A stretch of DNA of 64,000 nt, taken from Candidatus Sumerlaeota bacterium (GTDB taxonomy: Bacteria > Sumerlaeota > Sumerlaeia > JADFCW01). Location of the stretch: the NCBI GenBank assembly GCA_017161705.1, contig JADFCW010000002.1:4528-68527 (forward strand). Reading direction: 5' to 3'. The notes beneath the pieces are model-generated. The model saw only the letters and a list, made by a program, of their open reading frames with translations, was not told the origin of the DNA and searched no databases. A program made the translations under genes and the position numbers. Position 1 is the first letter of the stretch; each line of letters opens with the position of its first letter. Below, one piece after another: positions 8,609 to 53,694 of this stretch.

Positions 8609-8967
8609 GGGAGAAACCTTTCTGGGTGTAGTATTGGACAAACGTCCGAGCTGTTGCCGTTTCCCGTCTTTACGTTTTTCTTTCCACAGCCGGTAGGATG
8701 CTAAAGTTTGCCAATGACAGGCAGTCAAGCAAGAAATCGCTGTGCAACTCTCCGCAGGCGATGCACTGTTCTGATTCCTGCCTCCCATATCGTTATTGCA
8801 ATTTACCGAGCGTCTGACCTATCCTTGTTCTTGGATAGATCCTCCTAACGTGGCCTTCGGCTATAACCAAAAAGATTTTCGCCAGAGAGCTAGATCTCAA
8901 GATTGAAAAAGGGCGGCCGTAAAAACCAGGCCGATAGGTTGTCATGCGATGAAGCGTTACAGAAAAA

Positions 8968-8986
8968 GCGGCAGCAGGGCTGCCGC
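8968..8986 (-). terminator. Terminator-like hairpin 1 of repeat copy 2 (GCGGCAGC-AGG-GCTGCCGC), T-tract on the minus strand
   Basis: Perfect 8 bp GC stem preceded by AAAAA on the plus strand, which reads TTTTT after the hairpin on the minus strand. Confidence 0.45.
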
Positions 8987-9039
8987 TCTCCAAAGATTTT
9001 GCTCTGATCCGGCAAAGCAGAATGCTTTTGCTTTGGACT

Positions 9040-9062
9040 GCGGCAGCCATGCCGCCGCTTTT
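9040..9062 (+). terminator. Terminator-like hairpin 2 of repeat copy 2 followed by TTTTGCCCGACAA
   Basis: GCGGCAGC-CAT-GCCGCCGC stem with one mismatch, followed by TTTT. Confidence 0.45.
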
Positions 9063-14407: not shown

Positions 14408-14502
14408 TTCGCCGCGACACAGCGATCGAAAGAAGGGTTTTCATCTCCCTCAATCGCGATGCGGGAAACCGCCCCGCTGGCTTTCTGAAAAACGCAGCAC
14501 AC

Positions 14503-14599
14503 GAAAGTGTGAACGACATGCAACCCAGTGAAGATTGAATTACCAACAGCACACTAAAGTGTGAACTACAAACGGCAAACTGAAGTTTGAACTACGAGC
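14503..14599 (-). repeat. Inverted copies (about 2 units) of the GTAGTTCA/CTTCAG repeat
   Basis: The reverse complement reads GCTCGTAGTTCAAACTTCAGTTTGCCGTTTGTAGTTCACACTTTAGTGTG..., nearly identical to the tandem unit at 53570-53673. Confidence 0.65.
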
Positions 14600-22126: not shown

Positions 22127-22329
22127 GGCGGACCGTAAATGGGCAATTAACGCCGGAAATTCGCAACGCGAAAGCGCATGCGCATCCCGCTTGACTTTGA
22201 GTGAATTGCCGCCTGCTATCTTTTGCGTAACCCGCTTTGCCAGAGGGCTAGATCTCAAAATTGAAAAATTCCAAGGCGGCCGTAAAAGCTAGGGCAATAG
22301 GTTGTCTTGCGATGACCCCATATAGCAAA

Positions 22330-22348
22330 GCGGCAGCATGGCTGCCGC
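22330..22348. terminator. Hairpin 1 of repeat copy 3 (GCGGCAGC-ATG-GCTGCCGC)
   Basis: Perfect 8 bp GC stem. Confidence 0.4.
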
Positions 22349-22401
22349 ACTCCAAAACTTTTGGCCTGATCCGGCAAGGCGAAATGCTTCTGCTTTGGAC
22401 T

Positions 22402-22424
22402 GCGGCAGCCGTGCTGCCGCTTTT
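22402..22424 (+). terminator. Hairpin 2 of repeat copy 3 (GCGGCAGC-CGT-GCTGCCGC) followed by TTTTGCCCGACAA
   Basis: Perfect stem plus T-tract, 280 bp after the cytochrome stop and 175 bp before the PhoD-like start. Confidence 0.5.
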
Positions 22425-27553: not shown

Positions 27554-28834
27554 TTATGCAGTGAGTGGCGTTTTGATCTTGCAGACAACGGAGTGGCGGC
27601 GCGGGCTGCGGACAATCGGGAGCTCATCCACGACTTTGACCTCCACGCCGATTTGCTGGTTGAATAACTCCACGCACTTGCTGCGCATCATCGCCGACGT
27701 CCGCTCGTTGAATAGCGTAGTCGGCACCACCAGAATCTCGACTTTGCGCGGCTCGATCTGGACTAGCCGATAGGCCAGAACGTTGGTGAACTGATCGAGA
27801 ATATGTTCGATTTGCCGGGTGCCGACATACCCTCCGCCCGGCAGATGAACCGAGTGCTCAAACCGCCCGTGCACGCCCTCGAGCACCGGCCCCTGCCAGC
27901 CGCATTTGCACGGCCCTTTTTTCCAGCTGGCCACATCGCCCGTCCGATAGCGGATCAACGGCATGGTGTCATTGGCCAGACTGGTTAGGACCACCTCGCC
28001 CGGTTCGCCCGGATTGACCGGGTGGTCGTTGTGCAGAATCTCGACGTGAACCAGATCGAAATTCACGTGGAGTCCGTCGCGCGCCGGGCACTCGGCGGCG
28101 ACCGGCCCCAATTCCCACATCGTGTAAACATCCGTCGGCGGAATCCCAAACGTCTCGCGCAGCGTGTCGCGGTCGCTGGCCCGCATCACTTCTCCCCAGC
28201 TCAGGAGTAGCCGCGGCTGGAATCCCAGCGTCTTACCTTTGCGGATTTCCTGGCCGATGCGGCTGAGCGCCCACAGCGGCGCCGCCACGCAATCCGGCTT
28301 TACGCGGCTGATCACATGCAAATGCTCGAGGGTAGTCTCGGATGTGGGTACATAGTATCGCCGCCCGCGCAACATGCTGTCGAGCCATGTCGGCGGCGGC
28401 GGGGTCAGGCCTTCCGGCAGAATAGCCACGCGGTCGTGGCGGCCGGTCAGACCGTGGCCCTCGACGATGCGCCGCTCGATCAGGCGAATCGTTTCGTATT
28501 CGTCGGGGGAAAGAAAAACGCACGGCGCGGCAACTCCCGGCTCGGCCGCGGCAGCCCGCCGCCGGCACGACTCGCGCACTGTGCCGCGCGCCAGAAACGC
28601 ATCGGCTTCGCTTTGCAGATCGGCTCTCGTCGTGAACGGCAGGATGGATATATCGCGCAGTTGCCGGATATCGCGAAGTTTGATCCCATGCGAATGAAAG
28701 CGCTTTTCATAGAAAGGAACGTGCTGGGCCGCGCGCTCGATGACCTGGTGCAGACGCGACTCCGCAAATTTGGCAATCTGGCGCGCCGACCAATGCGCTC
28801 GATCGAGAATGTCTTTGGGATGGATTTTGGCCAT
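27554..28834 (-). CDS. PaaK/CapK/F390-synthetase-like adenylate-forming enzyme
   Basis: Start trimmed to MAKIHPKDI. Carries the ANL-superfamily core of PaaK-family ligases (YRTGDVASW) but is divergent from canonical PaaK. Confidence 0.6.
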   Translation of the reverse strand: MAKIHPKDILDRAHWSARQIAKFAESRLHQVIERAAQHVPFYEKRFHSHGIKLRDIRQLRDISILPFTTRADLQSEADAFLARGTVRESCRRRAAAAEPGVAAPCVFLSPDEYETIRLIERRIVEGHGLTGRHDRVAILPEGLTPPPPTWLDSMLRGRRYYVPTSETTLEHLHVISRVKPDCVAAPLWALSRIGQEIRKGKTLGFQPRLLLSWGEVMRASDRDTLRETFGIPPTDVYTMWELGPVAAECPARDGLHVNFDLVHVEILHNDHPVNPGEPGEVVLTSLANDTMPLIRYRTGDVASWKKGPCKCGWQGPVLEGVHGRFEHSVHLPGGGYVGTRQIEHILDQFTNVLAYRLVQIEPRKVEILVVPTTLFNERTSAMMRSKCVELFNQQIGVEVKVVDELPIVRSPRRHSVVCKIKTPLTA

Positions 28835-29211
28835 CGGGCTCGCTCGCCGTCGAAAATTACACCCCCTACTGCACTTCCTGCTTATGCTGTGTTTATGCCC
28901 CATCCTCCGCCGCGCCGCAAGCCTTTTCTTGCATAAAACGTTGCGTGGCGTAGGTTCGAAATGCCGGCGCTGCGATGCCGCGCCCTCTGCCACGTCGCCG
29001 CCCGGCCTATCGGTTCCAATCCCAGCGTTACCCTCTCCGCCCTCCTGAACGTTTGCAGCTTGTGTCAGTAGCCCTTGGCTATGCCAACCAGGAAGAGCGT
29101 CTCTTCGGCGACATCGGTTGGCCTTGACCCGCTCACTTGCATGGACGAACTATATGAAGGTTGATGCGGATATGCGGCAAATTTGACTCAAACGGCCGAT
29201 AGTAATCGCTC

Positions 29212-32200
29212 ATGGGAAAAGAGCCCATGTCCTGGACCGCCGCACAGCGGCGTGCAATTGAAACGCGCGGGGCCGACCTGCTCGTGGCCGCCTCGGCCGG
29301 CACGGGCAAGACCGCGGTCCTCGTCGAGCGCTGCATCCGCCTGGTAACGGATCCGATCGCCCCGATAGACCTCGATCGCCTGCTTGTGGTGACCTTCACG
29401 GAGGCGGCAGCCGCGGAAATGCGCAACCGGATCGGCGAGGCGCTGCATCGCCAGATCGCGCAGCACCCGGCGGATGCCCGGTTGCGGCGGCAGTTGATGT
29501 TGCTCGACCGCGCAATGATCTCAACGCTGCATTCCTTCGCGTTCCGCATAATTCAGGAACATTTCTTCCGCCTCGGCCTCGATCCGAATCTGGCAGTGCT
29601 GGATCCAGACGAAGCACTTCTGCTGCGCCATGAAACGCTCGACGATGTGTTCGAGGCCCTTTACACAAGCGAGAGCGAAACAGGGCAGCGGTTTGTGCGC
29701 CTGATCGAGCGCTATGGAAAGGACGGCGACGACGCGCCGGTGCGCAGCGCCGTTCTAAACCTGTGGGAGTTTCTGCGAAGTCTGCCGCGTCCGGAGCAGT
29801 GGAAGCGGCAGGTGTTGGACTCCTATCCGAAACCCGATGAAGCCCCCCCGCCTTTCGAGCGCCTTCGCCGCTGGTATGAGCCCTTTGTAGCCGCGCTGCG
29901 CGAGAACATGTTGCAGATCGAATCGGACCTCAGGGCCGCAGCGCAATGGGTCTATGATGCCGATCCCTCAACACGGGGATATACGCAATTCTTTCGAGAC
30001 GTTGCGGACGAGATGGCGAAATTGCGCGCGACGCTCCAGACCAACGGATACGACGCGTTCCACGAGGCCATCGGAAAGTGGGAATATCCGAAGTTGCGCA
30101 CAAATCCCGCCGTCGCCGACGATTTCATGCAGCAGGTGCGCGCACGGAACGACAAAATTCGCGAGGCCAAAAAGACACTTTTCAAGAACTGGTGCGTACT
30201 GTCCGGCGCGCAATGGGCAGAGACGCTGCGGGCCACACGCGCGGACGTAGAGATGATGTTCGAACTGGTCGAGCGGTTCGACGCCGCGTTTGCACGCGTC
30301 AAGCGCGAGCGCGGCGAAGTGGACTTCGGCGACCTCGAGCGGTTCTGTTTCGATTTACTGTGCGACAAGGCAGCCTCGGAAGGCGACCGCTATGCGCCGT
30401 CGGAAGTGGCGCGCAAAGAACTGCGCGATCGCTTCGAGGCGGTCCTGGTGGACGAATATCAGGATATCAATCCGCTGCAGGATGCGATCATCCGGCTGTG
30501 TGCGCGGGAAAACGATCCGCAACGGCCGCCGAACCTGTTCATGGTTGGCGATGTCAAACAGTCCATCTATCGGTTCCGGCTGGCCGAGCCGAAGTTGTTC
30601 CTGCAACGCCTGGCGGCGTTTCGCTCGGAAGGGGGCGCGGGGATCGGGCAACGCATTGACCTGTCGGAAAACCACCGAAGCCGGCCGGGGCTGCTTGCGG
30701 CGATCAATGCACTGTGCAGCCGGATCATGTCGCCCGAGGTGGGGGGAATTGTCTATGATTCGGCAGCAGAGTTACGGGGAGGATTCGATTTTCCAAAGGA
30801 AAGCAGCGGCGACATTCCGCCGCCGGTCACAGGACTGCCCGTCGAAGTTCACTTCTTCGACCGCGCGCGAGAGGAAACTATATCAGAAAGCGAGACCACT
30901 GCAGAATCGACGGAAGTTGACGAAGAAGAACCCAGGGACGGATCTGAGGCAGGGGCTTTGGCTGGTGCGGCGGTCCCGCCTGACGAACTCGAGGAAATCG
31001 AAATCGAGGCGCACTGGGTGGCCCGGCGAATCCGTGCCATGCTCAGCGGCGAGTTTTCCGTATGGGACCGCGGTGAAGGCCGTTACCGACCGGTCGCGCG
31101 CCGGGACATCGCGGTGTTGTTGCAGACGGCGGCGTATAAGGCAGCTCTATTTGTGCGGATTCTGCAGGCACACGGCATCCCTGCTTATACCGACATTCCG
31201 CCCGGGAAATTGCAGCCGGCTGAAATTCGCGACCTGTTCGCATTGCTGGAGCTGCTCGACAATCCCTGCCAGGATATTCCCCTGGCGGCAGTGCTGCGGT
31301 CGCCTCTGGTGCGCCTGAGCGAGGATGATCTGGCGCGCATCCGAATTCATCGCCGCGAGAGCAGCTTCTTTTCCGCCGCGCGCGCCTATTGTGAAAGCGG
31401 ACCGGAGGAACCTCTGCGCCGCCGGCTGGGGGAGTTTTTCGACCGCCTCGATCGCTGGCGGACTCTAGCCCGGCGCGGGCCCCTTGCACGCGCGCTCTGG
31501 GCCATCTACGACGAGACCGGTTATCTGGACTATGTCACGGCGATGGACGGCGGGGCCCAACGACGGGCCAACTTGATTGGGCTGTATGACCGGGCGCGCC
31601 AGTTCGACGAGTTCCGGCGGCGGGGCCTCGCGCGGTTCATTCAGTTTGTCCGCCAGCTGCAGGAAACCGAGAACCAGCTGGCAACACCGCCGGCTGTGTC
31701 GGAAGCCGACGACGTCGTGCGCGTGATGAGCATTCACAAGAGCAAGGGGTTGGAGTTTCCCGTGGTATTCCTGCCGGACATTGGCAAGAATTTCAATTTT
31801 CAAAATACGCGGGAGGACGTGGTTACCGATCGCGACCTTGGCGTGGCGCTGCGGGCCGTGGTGCCCCGGCGGAAAATCAAGTATCCAACGGTCGCGCACG
31901 CGGTGGCCTCGCGGCAGGTCAAGCGCGAGATTCTGGCCGAGAATATCCGCCTGCTGTACGTGGCGTTGACGCGCGCACGAGAAAAACTGGTTCTGTGCGG
32001 CTCGGTAAAGTTGGACAAAGCTTTGCAGGCATGGCGCCAATGCGCGGTTGCCGGGAACGACGGCCGGATTGCGCTGAGCCCCGGCGTTCTGGCATCCGCC
32101 CGCAGTTTTAGCGACTGGATCGGGCCGGCGCTGGCGCGTCTGGGCTGTTTGGGCGATCCAGCCCACCAGCCGCCGCCATCGGATACGTTATTCGCCGTCC

Positions 32201-33177
32201 ATTTTCATTGCGCCGAAGAGATTCAACGCTTGCAGACCAAAAACCTGGAGCGCGCGCGCGACGAGGAGACGTTGCGCAAGATTGCCGCGCTACAGCCGGT
32301 CGCTCCGCCCCCGCATGACCGCCAAGCGGTCGCGCGGATTTTCGAGCGCCTGACCTGGCAGTATGCCGCACGGCCGCTGACGCGCATTCGCGGAAAAATG
32401 TCGGTGTCCGAAATCAAACGGCGGTTCGAGACCGGGCGCGAAAGCGACGAGGCATTGAACGGGTGGGGCAGACAGGCAATAGCCCGCCGACCGGCGTTCA
32501 TGGCTGCGGGAACCGGCACGGCGCCCGTACTAACGGCCTCCGAGATTGGCACGGCCACACATACAGTGTTGCGCCATTTGGACCTATCGCAGCCGCCCGA
32601 CGAGGCAACGGTGCGCAGCCAGATAGCGCAGATTGCGGCGGAGGGAAAGCTCGCTGCCGCCGAGGCGGCGTGCGTGGATGCAGCAGCCATCGCCCGGTTT
32701 CTCCAGTCGCCGATAGGAACAGAAATTCGCGGAGCGCCCCATCGCGTGCAGCGCGAGATGCCGTTCAGCCTGGCGGTGCCGGCGGCCGAGATTGCGCGGC
32801 TGGAGAGGAGGCTGTCCAGCGAAATCAAGTCTAACGGGTCGGACGGGTCAGATGAGTCGGACAGGTCAGACAGCTCGGACCCCTCAGACAAATCCGATAG
32901 GATTTTTTGCAACGAGTGGGTCCACGTCCAGGGGATCGTGGACTGCTTGTTCGAGCGGCCGGAGGGGTTTGTGCTGTTGGACTTCAAGACCGACCGCGTC
33001 GAACGAGACACGGCCGAAACACGCGCCGCATTTTACCGTCCACAAATGGAGTTTTATGCCCGCGCGGTGGAAACGATTTTCCGCCGGCCTGTGGTCGAGC
33101 AAGTGCTTTACTTTCTTTCCTGCGGTGTGGCAGTGTCCATGCCTCCGAGGGACGGAGAGCGGTTTGGGAGATTTTAG
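29212..33177 (+). CDS. AddA-like UvrD-family helicase fused to a C-terminal PD-(D/E)xK nuclease
   Basis: Walker A AASAGTGKTAVL, UvrD helicase motifs, C-terminal nuclease motif GIVDCLFE...LLDFKTD. Acidic inserts and a DGSDESDRSDSSDPSDKSD low-complexity repeat. No addB-like gene is adjacent. Confidence 0.8.
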   Translation: MGKEPMSWTAAQRRAIETRGADLLVAASAGTGKTAVLVERCIRLVTDPIAPIDLDRLLVVTFTEAAAAEMRNRIGEALHRQIAQHPADARLRRQLMLLDRAMISTLHSFAFRIIQEHFFRLGLDPNLAVLDPDEALLLRHETLDDVFEALYTSESETGQRFVRLIERYGKDGDDAPVRSAVLNLWEFLRSLPRPEQWKRQVLDSYPKPDEAPPPFERLRRWYEPFVAALRENMLQIESDLRAAAQWVYDADPSTRGYTQFFRDVADEMAKLRATLQTNGYDAFHEAIGKWEYPKLRTNPAVADDFMQQVRARNDKIREAKKTLFKNWCVLSGAQWAETLRATRADVEMMFELVERFDAAFARVKRERGEVDFGDLERFCFDLLCDKAASEGDRYAPSEVARKELRDRFEAVLVDEYQDINPLQDAIIRLCARENDPQRPPNLFMVGDVKQSIYRFRLAEPKLFLQRLAAFRSEGGAGIGQRIDLSENHRSRPGLLAAINALCSRIMSPEVGGIVYDSAAELRGGFDFPKESSGDIPPPVTGLPVEVHFFDRAREETISESETTAESTEVDEEEPRDGSEAGALAGAAVPPDELEEIEIEAHWVARRIRAMLSGEFSVWDRGEGRYRPVARRDIAVLLQTAAYKAALFVRILQAHGIPAYTDIPPGKLQPAEIRDLFALLELLDNPCQDIPLAAVLRSPLVRLSEDDLARIRIHRRESSFFSAARAYCESGPEEPLRRRLGEFFDRLDRWRTLARRGPLARALWAIYDETGYLDYVTAMDGGAQRRANLIGLYDRARQFDEFRRRGLARFIQFVRQLQETENQLATPPAVSEADDVVRVMSIHKSKGLEFPVVFLPDIGKNFNFQNTREDVVTDRDLGVALRAVVPRRKIKYPTVAHAVASRQVKREILAENIRLLYVALTRAREKLVLCGSVKLDKALQAWRQCAVAGNDGRIALSPGVLASARSFSDWIGPALARLGCLGDPAHQPPPSDTLFAVHFHCAEEIQRLQTKNLERARDEETLRKIAALQPVAPPPHDRQAVARIFERLTWQYAARPLTRIRGKMSVSEIKRRFETGRESDEALNGWGRQAIARRPAFMAAGTGTAPVLTASEIGTATHTVLRHLDLSQPPDEATVRSQIAQIAAEGKLAAAEAACVDAAAIARFLQSPIGTEIRGAPHRVQREMPFSLAVPAAEIARLERRLSSEIKSNGSDGSDESDRSDSSDPSDKSDRIFCNEWVHVQGIVDCLFERPEGFVLLDFKTDRVERDTAETRAAFYRPQMEFYARAVETIFRRPVVEQVLYFLSCGVAVSMPPRDGERFGRF
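32848..32885 (+). repeat. Hexamer (TCGGAC/TCAGAC) tandem array inside the addA-like coding sequence, left arm of an inverted pair
   Basis: GTCAGATGAGTCGGACAGGTCAGACAGCTCGGAC encodes the Ser-Asp repeat. Confidence 0.6.
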
Positions 33178-33202
33178 GCTTTAGCCCTTGGATTCAAGTG
33201 AA

Positions 33203-33240
33203 CAAAGTCCGACCTGTCCGACTTGTCCGACTCGTCTGAC
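33203..33240 (-). repeat. Right arm of the inverted hexamer-array pair (GTCCGAC x3 to x4) in the addA-larA-like spacer
   Basis: The reverse complement GTCAGACGAGTCGGACAAGTCGGACAGGTCGGAC is about 85% identical to 32848-32885. Confidence 0.6.
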
Positions 33241-33292
33241 GCGCGTCCTTTCCCCAGAAATCCGCGCCCCAAAACCGCCGGAGGAACGATTG

Positions 33293-34600
33293 ATGAAATA
33301 CACGCTATGTTATGGCCGCGAAACCCTGACGTTGGATCTTCCCGATGATCTTTGCCGTCGGGTAATCCAGCCCAGTTTTCCGCCGGCCATTCCCGACCCG
33401 GATGCGGCCATAACGCGCTGCCTCGATGATCCGGTCGGCACACCGCCGTTGTCGAAGATTCTCGAAGGCCGACGCCGGATTGTCGTGGTCATCCCCGATG
33501 CAACCCGCGCCGGAGCCATACCTCTTTATGTCGGTCCGCTGCTTCGCTATTTACGCGCCCACGGGGTATCGCGCGAGCGCGCAACCCTGCTCTCGGCCAC
33601 AGGCGCCCACGGCCTGCACAGCGAGGCCCAGCGCGCCGCGCTGGTCGGCCCGGAAATTGCCGCCCAGTGGACCGTCGAAGACCACGACTGCGATCGGGGG
33701 AACGTCGAGATCGAGCCGCTCGACGCGGAAACACCCGTGGCCGTGGACCGCCATGCGCTGGAGGCCGACTGTCTGATTCTGGCCGGACAAATCAGTTTTC
33801 ATTACTGTGCAGGATTCGGCGGCGGGCGCAAGCTGATTGCCCCCGGGTTGTGCGGGCGCGCAACGGTTCACGCTCTCCATCGCCGGACGCTTGCCAACAT
33901 TGACGCTGACGGCAACTGGCACAGCCGCACGGGCGTCCTCCACCACAATCCGTTTCACGAGGCAATGCTGGCCGTTGCGCGGCGCGTCGGGCCGCGTTTC
34001 ACGCTCCATGCAACATTCGGTTTGGGCAACCAGCTGCTAGGGGTCGCGGCGGGCGATCTGGTCAAGGCACATGTAGCCGCCTGCCTGCAATATGCGCAGA
34101 TTTTCACCTGTCCTGTTCCCGAACGCCTGCCGTTGGTGGTGGCCTCGTGCGGCGGATGGCCGCTGGACGGCAATCTGTATCAGGCGCACAAGGCATTCGA
34201 CAACGCCTTTCGCGCCGTGCAGCGCGGGGGAACGATTCTCCTGCTGGCCGAATGCAGCGGCGGCTGGGGGCCCGAGGCGTTTGTCCGCTGGCTGGCCATT
34301 CCCACCCTGGCCGAGCATCGCCAGCGCCTGCGCGCGGAATTCCAAGTCGAAGGCCACACCACGTATGCGTTCAAATGGAAAGCCACGCAATGCCGCGTGA
34401 TTATCGTGAGCCACGTGCTGGACGAACGCATAACCGCAGGCGATGCACCCGCGTGGCTTCGCGGCGGCCCCTCGCCATTTCAGATCGAAATCGTCGGCAC
34501 AATCGGCGAAGCGCTGGAGCGGCTGGGCGCCGGCGGCCGCCGCCTGCCGTATTATCTGATGCCCAACGGCGCGGCCTGCCTGCCCGAAGTTACCGGATAG
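33293..34600 (+). CDS. LarA-like (DUF2088 / lactate racemase family) protein
   Basis: GGAGG RBS. Start trimmed to MKYTLCYGRETLTL. The N-terminal domain has a Rossmann-like IVVVIPD motif and conserved His residues typical of LarA-family 2-hydroxyacid racemases. Confidence 0.65.
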   Translation: MKYTLCYGRETLTLDLPDDLCRRVIQPSFPPAIPDPDAAITRCLDDPVGTPPLSKILEGRRRIVVVIPDATRAGAIPLYVGPLLRYLRAHGVSRERATLLSATGAHGLHSEAQRAALVGPEIAAQWTVEDHDCDRGNVEIEPLDAETPVAVDRHALEADCLILAGQISFHYCAGFGGGRKLIAPGLCGRATVHALHRRTLANIDADGNWHSRTGVLHHNPFHEAMLAVARRVGPRFTLHATFGLGNQLLGVAAGDLVKAHVAACLQYAQIFTCPVPERLPLVVASCGGWPLDGNLYQAHKAFDNAFRAVQRGGTILLLAECSGGWGPEAFVRWLAIPTLAEHRQRLRAEFQVEGHTTYAFKWKATQCRVIIVSHVLDERITAGDAPAWLRGGPSPFQIEIVGTIGEALERLGAGGRRLPYYLMPNGAACLPEVTG

Positions 34601-53519: not shown

Positions 53520-53694
53520 GTAGCGAACTTCAGTTTGCCGTTCGTAGTTCACGCTTCAGCGTGTTGTATGTAGTTCAAACTTCAGTTTGCCGTTCGTAGT
53601 TCACGCTTCAGCGTGTTGTATGTAGTTCAAACTTTAGTTTGCCGCTCGTAGTTCACGCTTCAGCGTGTTGTATGTAGTTCAAACTTCAGTTTGC
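53520..53694 (+). repeat. Tandem array: 52 bp unit x about 3.4, each unit made of two 26 bp half-units
   Basis: GTAGTTCAAACTTCAGTTTGCCGTTCGTAGTTCACGCTTCAGCGTGTTGTAT repeated with 1-3 substitutions per copy. Not CRISPR, because no unique spacers separate the units. Confidence 0.85.

Follow-up and report, generated by a model that had tools for sequence, protein, structure and literature searches.

The addA gene and the spacer that separates it from a downstream larA-like gene each carry a short tandem array of the same 9-nucleotide (nt) unit in a 64,000-nt stretch of Candidatus Sumerlaeota bacterium DNA (contig JADFCW010000002.1, positions 4,528 to 68,527; referred to here as the window). The two arrays face in opposite directions and are probably ordinary minisatellites whose pairing with one another is incidental. 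Two small minisatellites derived from one 9-bp unit (GTCNGAC followed by two variable nt) would gain and lose copies through slipped-strand mispairing at two tolerant sites. At the coding site, whole X-Ser-Asp tripeptides would be gained or lost in a flexible surface loop of the PD-(D/E)XK nuclease domain of AddA with the catalytic motifs left untouched, while the second minisatellite would occupy the non-coding addA-larA spacer. The features that bear on this proposal are given below, where L001 denotes the corresponding locus in a Candidatus Sumerlaeia bacterium metagenome-assembled genome (MAG; GCA_026415575).

29212-33177, plus strand: addA, encoding helicase-nuclease subunit A (1321 codons, stop codon TAG at 33175-33177), identified from Pfam domains and the names of homologues
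32829-32898, plus strand: coding 9-nt array of eight units of the GTCRGAC+NN type, AddA residues 1209-1229
32899-33174, plus strand: segment between the arrays, consisting of the last 92 addA codons with nuclease motifs II and III (GIVD...DFKTD) in a fold predicted with high confidence
33207-33240, plus strand: spacer 9-nt array of four GTCYGAC+YN units, inverted relative to the coding array
32844-32880 (5' arm) and 33207-33243, plus strand: inverted-repeat arms of 37 nt, 86% complementary, with 326 nt between them
33280-33285, plus strand: larA ribosome-binding site, recognized by its sequence GGAGGA, kept in L001 and lying outside the array pairing
33293-34600, plus strand: larA-like gene (nickel-pincer racemase family) with Pfam domains Lar_N and LarA_C, start codon ATG at 33293

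Both arrays consist of head-to-tail copies of one unit, which places them among the tandem repeats known as minisatellites. A preliminary description of the locus had called the unit a hexanucleotide, but the period is 9 nt at both arrays according to Tandem Repeats Finder (5.2 and 3.8 copies). The unit has a 7-nt core, GTCNGAC, which is palindromic except for its centre base, and a 2-nt spacer, and it encodes one X-Ser-Asp tripeptide. The units of the coding array are, in order, GTCTAAC-GG, GTCGGAC-GG, GTCAGAT-GA, GTCGGAC-AG, GTCAGAC-AG, CTCGGAC-CC, CTCAGAC-AA and ATCCGAT, which are translated as Lys-Ser-Asn followed by seven X-Ser-Asp tripeptides in which X is Gly, Gly, Glu, Arg, Ser, Pro and Lys. 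The peptide SDESDRSDSSD that had been read from this segment is indeed encoded there. Both arrays lie near the places originally given for them, although the coding array extends further than had been thought (32829-32898 rather than 32848-32885). The array can be classed as a coding variable-number tandem repeat in that its unit length is a multiple of three, the 1321-codon open reading frame (ORF) is intact and the catalytic residues are kept. The earlier suggestion that the units preserve the reading frame, such that slippage alters only the length of an acidic linker, fits both the 9-nt unit and the difference in copy number between two genomes that is described below.

AddA of the window contains UvrD-type helicase domains and a C-terminal PD-(D/E)XK nuclease domain with the catalytic D, D and K residues (Pfam UvrD-helicase, UvrD_C and PDDEXK_1), and it matches chain A of 3U44, the solved AddA from B. 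subtilis. In alignments with homologues the X-Ser-Asp run is inserted after nuclease motif I (EMPFSLA) and before motif II (VQGIVDC...DFKTD), in a loop that differs in length and sequence among Sumerlaeia AddA proteins. The nuclease residues G250, D253, D266 and K268 (fragment numbering) are invariant. The loop between motifs I and II spans 8 amino acids (aa) in the B. subtilis structure (3U44 chain A, residues 1141-1149), compared with about 40 here. In an AlphaFold2 model of the last 330 AddA residues, which has a mean predicted local distance difference test (pLDDT) score of 83, the insert is modelled as coil with a block pLDDT of about 60-72, and neighbouring elements score at least 90. 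Among the best 120 AddA homologues, the window's own protein is the only one in which X-[ST]-[DE] occurs at least three times in succession. The X-Ser-Asp run is a lineage-specific low-complexity insertion that is tolerated by AddA.

The spacer between addA and larA is 115 nt long (33178-33292), and its array, which begins 30 nt past the addA stop codon and ends 52 nt before the larA start codon, has the units GTCCGAC-CT, GTCCGAC-TT, GTCCGAC-TC and GTCTGAC. This second array is non-coding, and no ORF over it keeps its frame between the window and L001. A hidden small ORF on the minus strand (89 aa, ending in ...SDESDKSDRSD) was rejected as its frame is lost in L001 and it has no Pfam match. 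In both genomes the spacer array, when read as X-Ser-Asp, continues the phase of addA (window 33175-33243; L001 13925-13984). Its origin as a remnant of a C-terminal tail of AddA is nevertheless unsupported, since a TAG and then a TGA codon interrupt the frame in both genomes and the phase would agree by chance in one case out of three. Neither a sigma-70-like promoter nor an intrinsic terminator (G+C-rich hairpin with a T run) was found in 33178-33292, and no Rfam 15 match with E<=1 was obtained for 32000-34000.

The comparison of array-bearing genomes involves two, the window and L001. The closest relative of the window's AddA (P0002, 80% identical) is the protein encoded at L001, and the remaining AddA homologues are at most 61% identical. 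L001 shares the addA-larA arrangement and has both arrays at matching positions, in shorter and more degenerate form. Its coding array consists of GGG-TTG-GAC, AGG-TCA-GAC and AAG-TTG-GAC, specifying Gly-Leu-Asp, Arg-Ser-Asp and Lys-Leu-Asp, and its spacer array of ATCCGAC-CC, ATCTGAC-CT and GCCCGAC. The copy number, as a between-species comparison, is therefore seven to eight in the window versus three in L001 for the coding array, and four versus three for the spacer array. The orientation of the arrays is the same in the two genomes and addA is intact in both. The synteny of addA and larA extends to five more distant Sumerlaeia loci (L122, L124, L125, L126 and L127), all of which lack both arrays. 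Two metagenome scans for population or strain variants, one protein-based and one with an exact conserved 25-mer, yielded no further contigs. Exact-protein look-ups of the window's AddA and LarA returned no further close relative, and in a search for LarA homologues the window's own protein was the only one to exceed 65% identity. As a separate observation on the addA region, addB is not found beside addA in the window (27554-33177) or in L001 (9212-13927), and the window has no further ORF of more than 900 aa; addB lies directly upstream of addA in L122, L124, L126 and L127.

Tandem repeats of other kinds are found at and around these loci in related genomes. The heptamer CCGCAAN is repeated five times in the corresponding AddA loop of L127 (5690-5738), and the heptamer CTGAAAC is repeated five times at the end of addA and in the spacer of L124 (7868-7916). 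L001 has four copies of the heptamer GGATGAR and six copies of the 9-mer GTCCAYCTT upstream of a sulfatase gene (2745-2856). Tandem Repeats Finder also detects several other intergenic tandem repeats in the window. Evidently, short tandem arrays arise readily in these genomes at any place that tolerates additional sequence, and the presence of unrelated tandem repeats at corresponding permissive sites in other lineages argues for ordinary minisatellites.

The inverted relationship of the two arrays is pronounced. They form the top inverted repeat within 1 kb across the whole window. The 37-nt alignment has 5 mismatches and a longest perfect match of 10 nt, and alignment of the arms in direct orientation gives about 63% compared with 86% in inverted orientation. 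Part of this inverted similarity is intrinsic to the palindromic core. GTCNGAC differs from its own reverse complement at the central position only, so that arrays of this kind always share a complementarity of at least approximately 67%. The central base is a purine in the coding units and a pyrimidine in those of the spacer, which makes the two arrays inverted. The triplets (NNG)(TCN)(GAC) specify X-Ser-Asp on both strands, and thus the orientation is set only by the third base of the Ser codon. A palindromic core of this sort would yield an X-Ser-Asp type of array on either strand, and arrays that happened to lie in opposite orientations would automatically be complementary.

Within the window the repeat is restricted to these two sites. 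The two-unit pattern GTCYGAYNNGTCYGAY (at most one mismatch) has 7 matches, compared with 0.29 expected and none in 100 shuffles, and the four-fold periodic pattern GTC-N6 has 5 matches versus 0.01 expected; both patterns are confined to the two arrays. The single heptamer GTCCGAC shows no enrichment elsewhere, and its count of 13 versus 9.4 expected rules it out as a Chi-like over-represented word. A check for the same array in other places, which had been proposed earlier, turned up no further copy in the window, while another contig of the sister Sumerlaeia MAG does carry one, encoding SSDPSDASDPS, which was among the matches listed in the genome scan described below. That the arrays are only about 330 bp apart with no other copy in the window suggests a common local origin, which might have been an inverted duplication or template switch in an ancestor of the two carrier genomes.

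The same unit recurs in distant bacteria. A genome scan for three consecutive GTCYGAC-NN units, using one genome per species, found arrays at 120 or more loci, with the matches listed including Bacteroidota, Verrucomicrobiota, Lentisphaerota, Actinomycetota, Myxococcota, Armatimonadota, Acidobacteriota and others. Among the matches listed, 59 of 134 arrays are in an open X-Ser-Asp frame of at least 200 aa, while for 34 of the 134 both X-Ser-Asp frames are closed or shorter than 80 aa. The clearly non-coding share is thus about one quarter of the arrays listed, mostly from Bacteroidota, Verrucomicrobiota and Lentisphaerota. In the viral contigs of IMG/VR, at least 120 loci were found for the target unit GTCYGAC, at least 120 for the control unit CTCYGAC, 114 for the control unit CTCRGAC and 62 for the mirrored control GACYGTC. 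Three-unit 9-mer arrays of similar composition are therefore common, and the recurrence of the GTCYGAC unit is no evidence of shared function; a special cross-phylum family of arrays was rejected on the grounds that its abundance is matched by the control arrays. No array-associated Rfam match was found in 18 other array-carrying loci, and full-text searches of the accessible library for the array sequence or nonamer repeats returned nothing relevant.

Some of the occurrences in other bacteria have a structure of their own. The Lentisphaerae MAG SIG83 has a non-coding element of about 250-350 nt in several tandem copies on several contigs (L055 690-1650, and also L007, L023, L097 and L118), with no Rfam match, in which a conserved 45-nt head (TTGATGGCAACGG...GGCGTGGCGCTWGT) is followed by four to five copies of GTCTGACYT and then by AAGATGGG... 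In Prevotella ihumii (L071 2720-2835 and L018 1062-1165) there is a palindromic intergenic element that resembles repetitive extragenic palindromic (REP) sequences, in which terminal inverted repeats (AACCCAAATC...GATTTGGGTT) surround a GTCRGAC array followed by a GTCYGAC array to give a long hairpin; the copy in L071 adjoins a terminator-like hairpin. The Verrucomicrobia MAG WAS_Bin_30 has very long GTCCGACTT arrays (L061 9-285 with 31 units; L075 5402-5563 with 12 + 6 units), which adjoin another short tandem repeat (GGTGCCCGACACCACCC...).

It is possible that the pairing of the arrays has a function in RNA, as the preliminary description had raised in proposing a long-range stem in the mRNA. 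In an addA-larA transcript the coding and spacer arrays would pair over about 35-40 bp, and the roughly 330 nt between them would be looped out. We consider it unlikely that this duplex is functional, be it as a target at which a double-strand-specific RNase processes the transcript, or as a stabiliser or insulator by which larA expression is uncoupled from addA. Co-transcription of the two genes is plausible given the lack of a sigma-70-like promoter or terminator between them and their conserved synteny, and a 486-nt RNA (32815-33300) has a predicted dG of -208.5 kcal/mol (z=-5.07) with the array helix present in both the minimum-free-energy and centroid folds. The helix is also predicted in the minimum-free-energy fold of L001, so that the stem is found in the folds of both species, but the L001 fold is no better than shuffles (z=-1.67), and the L001 arms are about 77% complementary with a gap and were not reported as an inverted repeat by the repeat finder. 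Moreover, the complementarity ends at the array edges. The flanks outside the arrays are not more complementary than the genomic background (z=-0.9 for the window and -0.1 for L001); a mononucleotide-shuffle test in which complementarity beyond the arrays of the window had looked significant (alignment p ~0.016) lost its significance against the real genomic background. Complementarity between loop and spacer is absent from L122, L124, L125, L126 and L127, where the partner ranks are 53-893. Other observations that speak against a functional duplex are that the ribosome-binding site is outside the helix, the 5' arm is within a translated region, the copy numbers of the arms differ independently and the array region belongs to no Rfam family. 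Covariation can be sought in two sequences only, and these have repeat registers that can shift. The pairing potential appears from the sequences to reside in the arrays alone, in the single lineage that has them. An RNA stem is what two inverted arrays would be expected to give, and nothing points to selection for it. Were the RNA pairing functional, it would be an unusual instance of a coding low-complexity insert that doubles as an arm of a regulatory helix.

Alternatively, the arrays could act as DNA. MetJ binds tandem met boxes and the omega repressor binds heptad arrays, and by analogy a protein that binds cooperatively to tandem GTCNGAC boxes might control larA, with the coding copy as a second site or a decoy. 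Such an operator-like role is quite improbable in our view. It is consistent with the tandem repetition of a palindromic core a short distance upstream of a gene, as well as with the existence of non-coding arrays of the GTCNGAC-type unit in intergenic DNA of other phyla (e.g., Lentisphaerae SIG83 and Prevotella ihumii), the spacers of which are biased to TT, CT and CC as in the window. However, there is one such upstream site only in 64 kb, the adjacent genes include no regulator, the array is missing from relatives in which larA is arranged in the same way, the L001 copy is degenerate, and the cross-phylum recurrence is no evidence of a shared binding protein given that arrays of the control units are about equally frequent. 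Recombination between the arms, which had been put forward as a means of inverting or deleting the segment with the nuclease motifs, would switch the AddA nuclease off and on, and this we regard as hardly credible. The inverted arms do flank the last 92 addA codons, as the repeats around an invertible segment should, but they share at most 10 nt of uninterrupted identity, and efficient RecA-dependent exchange needs roughly 20-30 bp. The neighbours in the window, which include sulfatases, a PhoD phosphatase, an AMP-binding enzyme, two secretins and a symporter, contain no gene for an invertase, an integrase or any other recombinase, and the same is true of L001. The two genomes, which make for a weak test, present a single orientation with an intact gene. 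In addition, the 92 enclosed codons hold invariant catalytic residues, and inverting them would do no more than inactivate a conserved repair gene. A broader proposal would combine several of these elements: the inverted pair would be a selected double-stranded processing or stability element tuned by slippage in either arm, and non-coding GTCYGAC-YT nonamer arrays in Sumerlaeota, Lentisphaerota, Verrucomicrobiota and Bacteroidota would form an undescribed functional repeat class. We hold this to be very unlikely.

Several observations weigh against reading the arrays as ordinary minisatellites. The only two copies in 64 kb are about 330 bp apart, for which we estimate a random-placement chance of roughly 0.01. 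When each locus is scanned for same-strand partners of the segment that encodes the loop, the spacer array takes rank 1 in both the window and L001. Both arrays have outlasted divergence to 80% AddA identity, a longer persistence than unselected non-coding repeats would be expected to show. The window versions of both arrays also exceed those of L001 in length and regularity, hinting at coupled dynamics, and with two genomes only selection on the pairing is still compatible with the data. Taking these points together with the evidence above, we infer that the arrays have a common origin, that they change in length by slippage and that they are neutral. The predicted long-range RNA duplex would then be a by-product of their arrangement rather than a selected device.

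As things stand, the array pair matters little for its own sake. It does offer a case in which a slippage-prone tri-codon repeat lengthens a surface loop beside a nuclease active site without harming the gene. It also illustrates how repeats with palindromic cores create spurious-looking "inverted repeat" architectures: whenever the X codon of an (X-Ser-Asp)n run has G as its third base, both strands specify X-Ser-Asp, which calls for caution against over-reading inverted copies. Candidatus Sumerlaeia genomes appear to be rich in short tandem arrays at permissive sites, and these may mislead scans for motifs and structures.

Two other repeat families were noted in the window. One is a tandem repeat with a 26-nt unit, TGAACTAC-N6-CAAACTGAAG, at 14495-14595 (plus strand) and 53526-53694 (minus strand). 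Its two unit variants alternate to give a 52-nt super-period, with 3.2 copies and 97% matches at 53526, and its arrays are intergenic, opposite in orientation and 39 kb apart (8 matches versus 0.02 expected). The other is a palindromic element of about 100 nt that is present in two copies (8964-9062 and 22327-22423) and resembles a REP sequence or a miniature inverted-repeat transposable element. It has the sequence AAAGCGGCAGC..GCTGCCGC..CCAAA / TTTGG..GCGGCAGCC..GCCGCTTT, with arms of 30-32 nt that are 88-93% complementary.

Comparison with known systems brings out both likenesses and differences. Phase-variable contingency loci likewise have a slippage-prone tandem repeat within a gene or upstream of one, but their units of 1-7 nt shift the reading frame or the promoter spacing. 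The 9-nt unit preserves the frame and hence on/off switching of addA is not expected, and there are no promoter-like hexamers beside the spacer array. Long-range duplexes that are cut by RNase III in mRNA and pre-rRNA resemble the predicted duplex, in which two segments of a single transcript, separated by about 330 nt, would pair over at least 35 bp, whereas the duplex described here is a putative one and the feature is confined to two genomes. REP sequences and bacterial interspersed mosaic elements are intergenic, often lie at gene ends and can occur as inverted pairs, and their RNA stems can affect the stability of upstream mRNA. REPs, however, are single imperfect palindromes of 20-40 nt that are present in many copies and associated with RAYT transposases, while the addA-larA locus has tandem 9-mers, two arrays only in 64 kb and one arm that is coding; the Prevotella ihumii element is closer to REP than this locus is. 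The heptamer arrays of cyanobacteria known as short tandemly repeated repetitive sequences are also made of short head-to-tail intergenic units scattered over the genome, and their unit varies between related lineages as do the heptamers of L124, L127 and L001, although the unit here is 9 nt long with a palindromic core, is found in another phylum and has one copy inside a gene. The Ser-Asp region of staphylococcal Sdr and Clf proteins is similarly encoded by in-frame tandem units, forms a Ser/Asp-rich, low-complexity and flexible segment, and differs in copy number between relatives, presumably through slipped-strand mispairing. It differs in that an 18-nt unit encoding (SD)3 builds the stalk of a surface adhesin, while in AddA three to eight copies of a 9-nt X-Ser-Asp unit extend a loop of a cytoplasmic repair nuclease.

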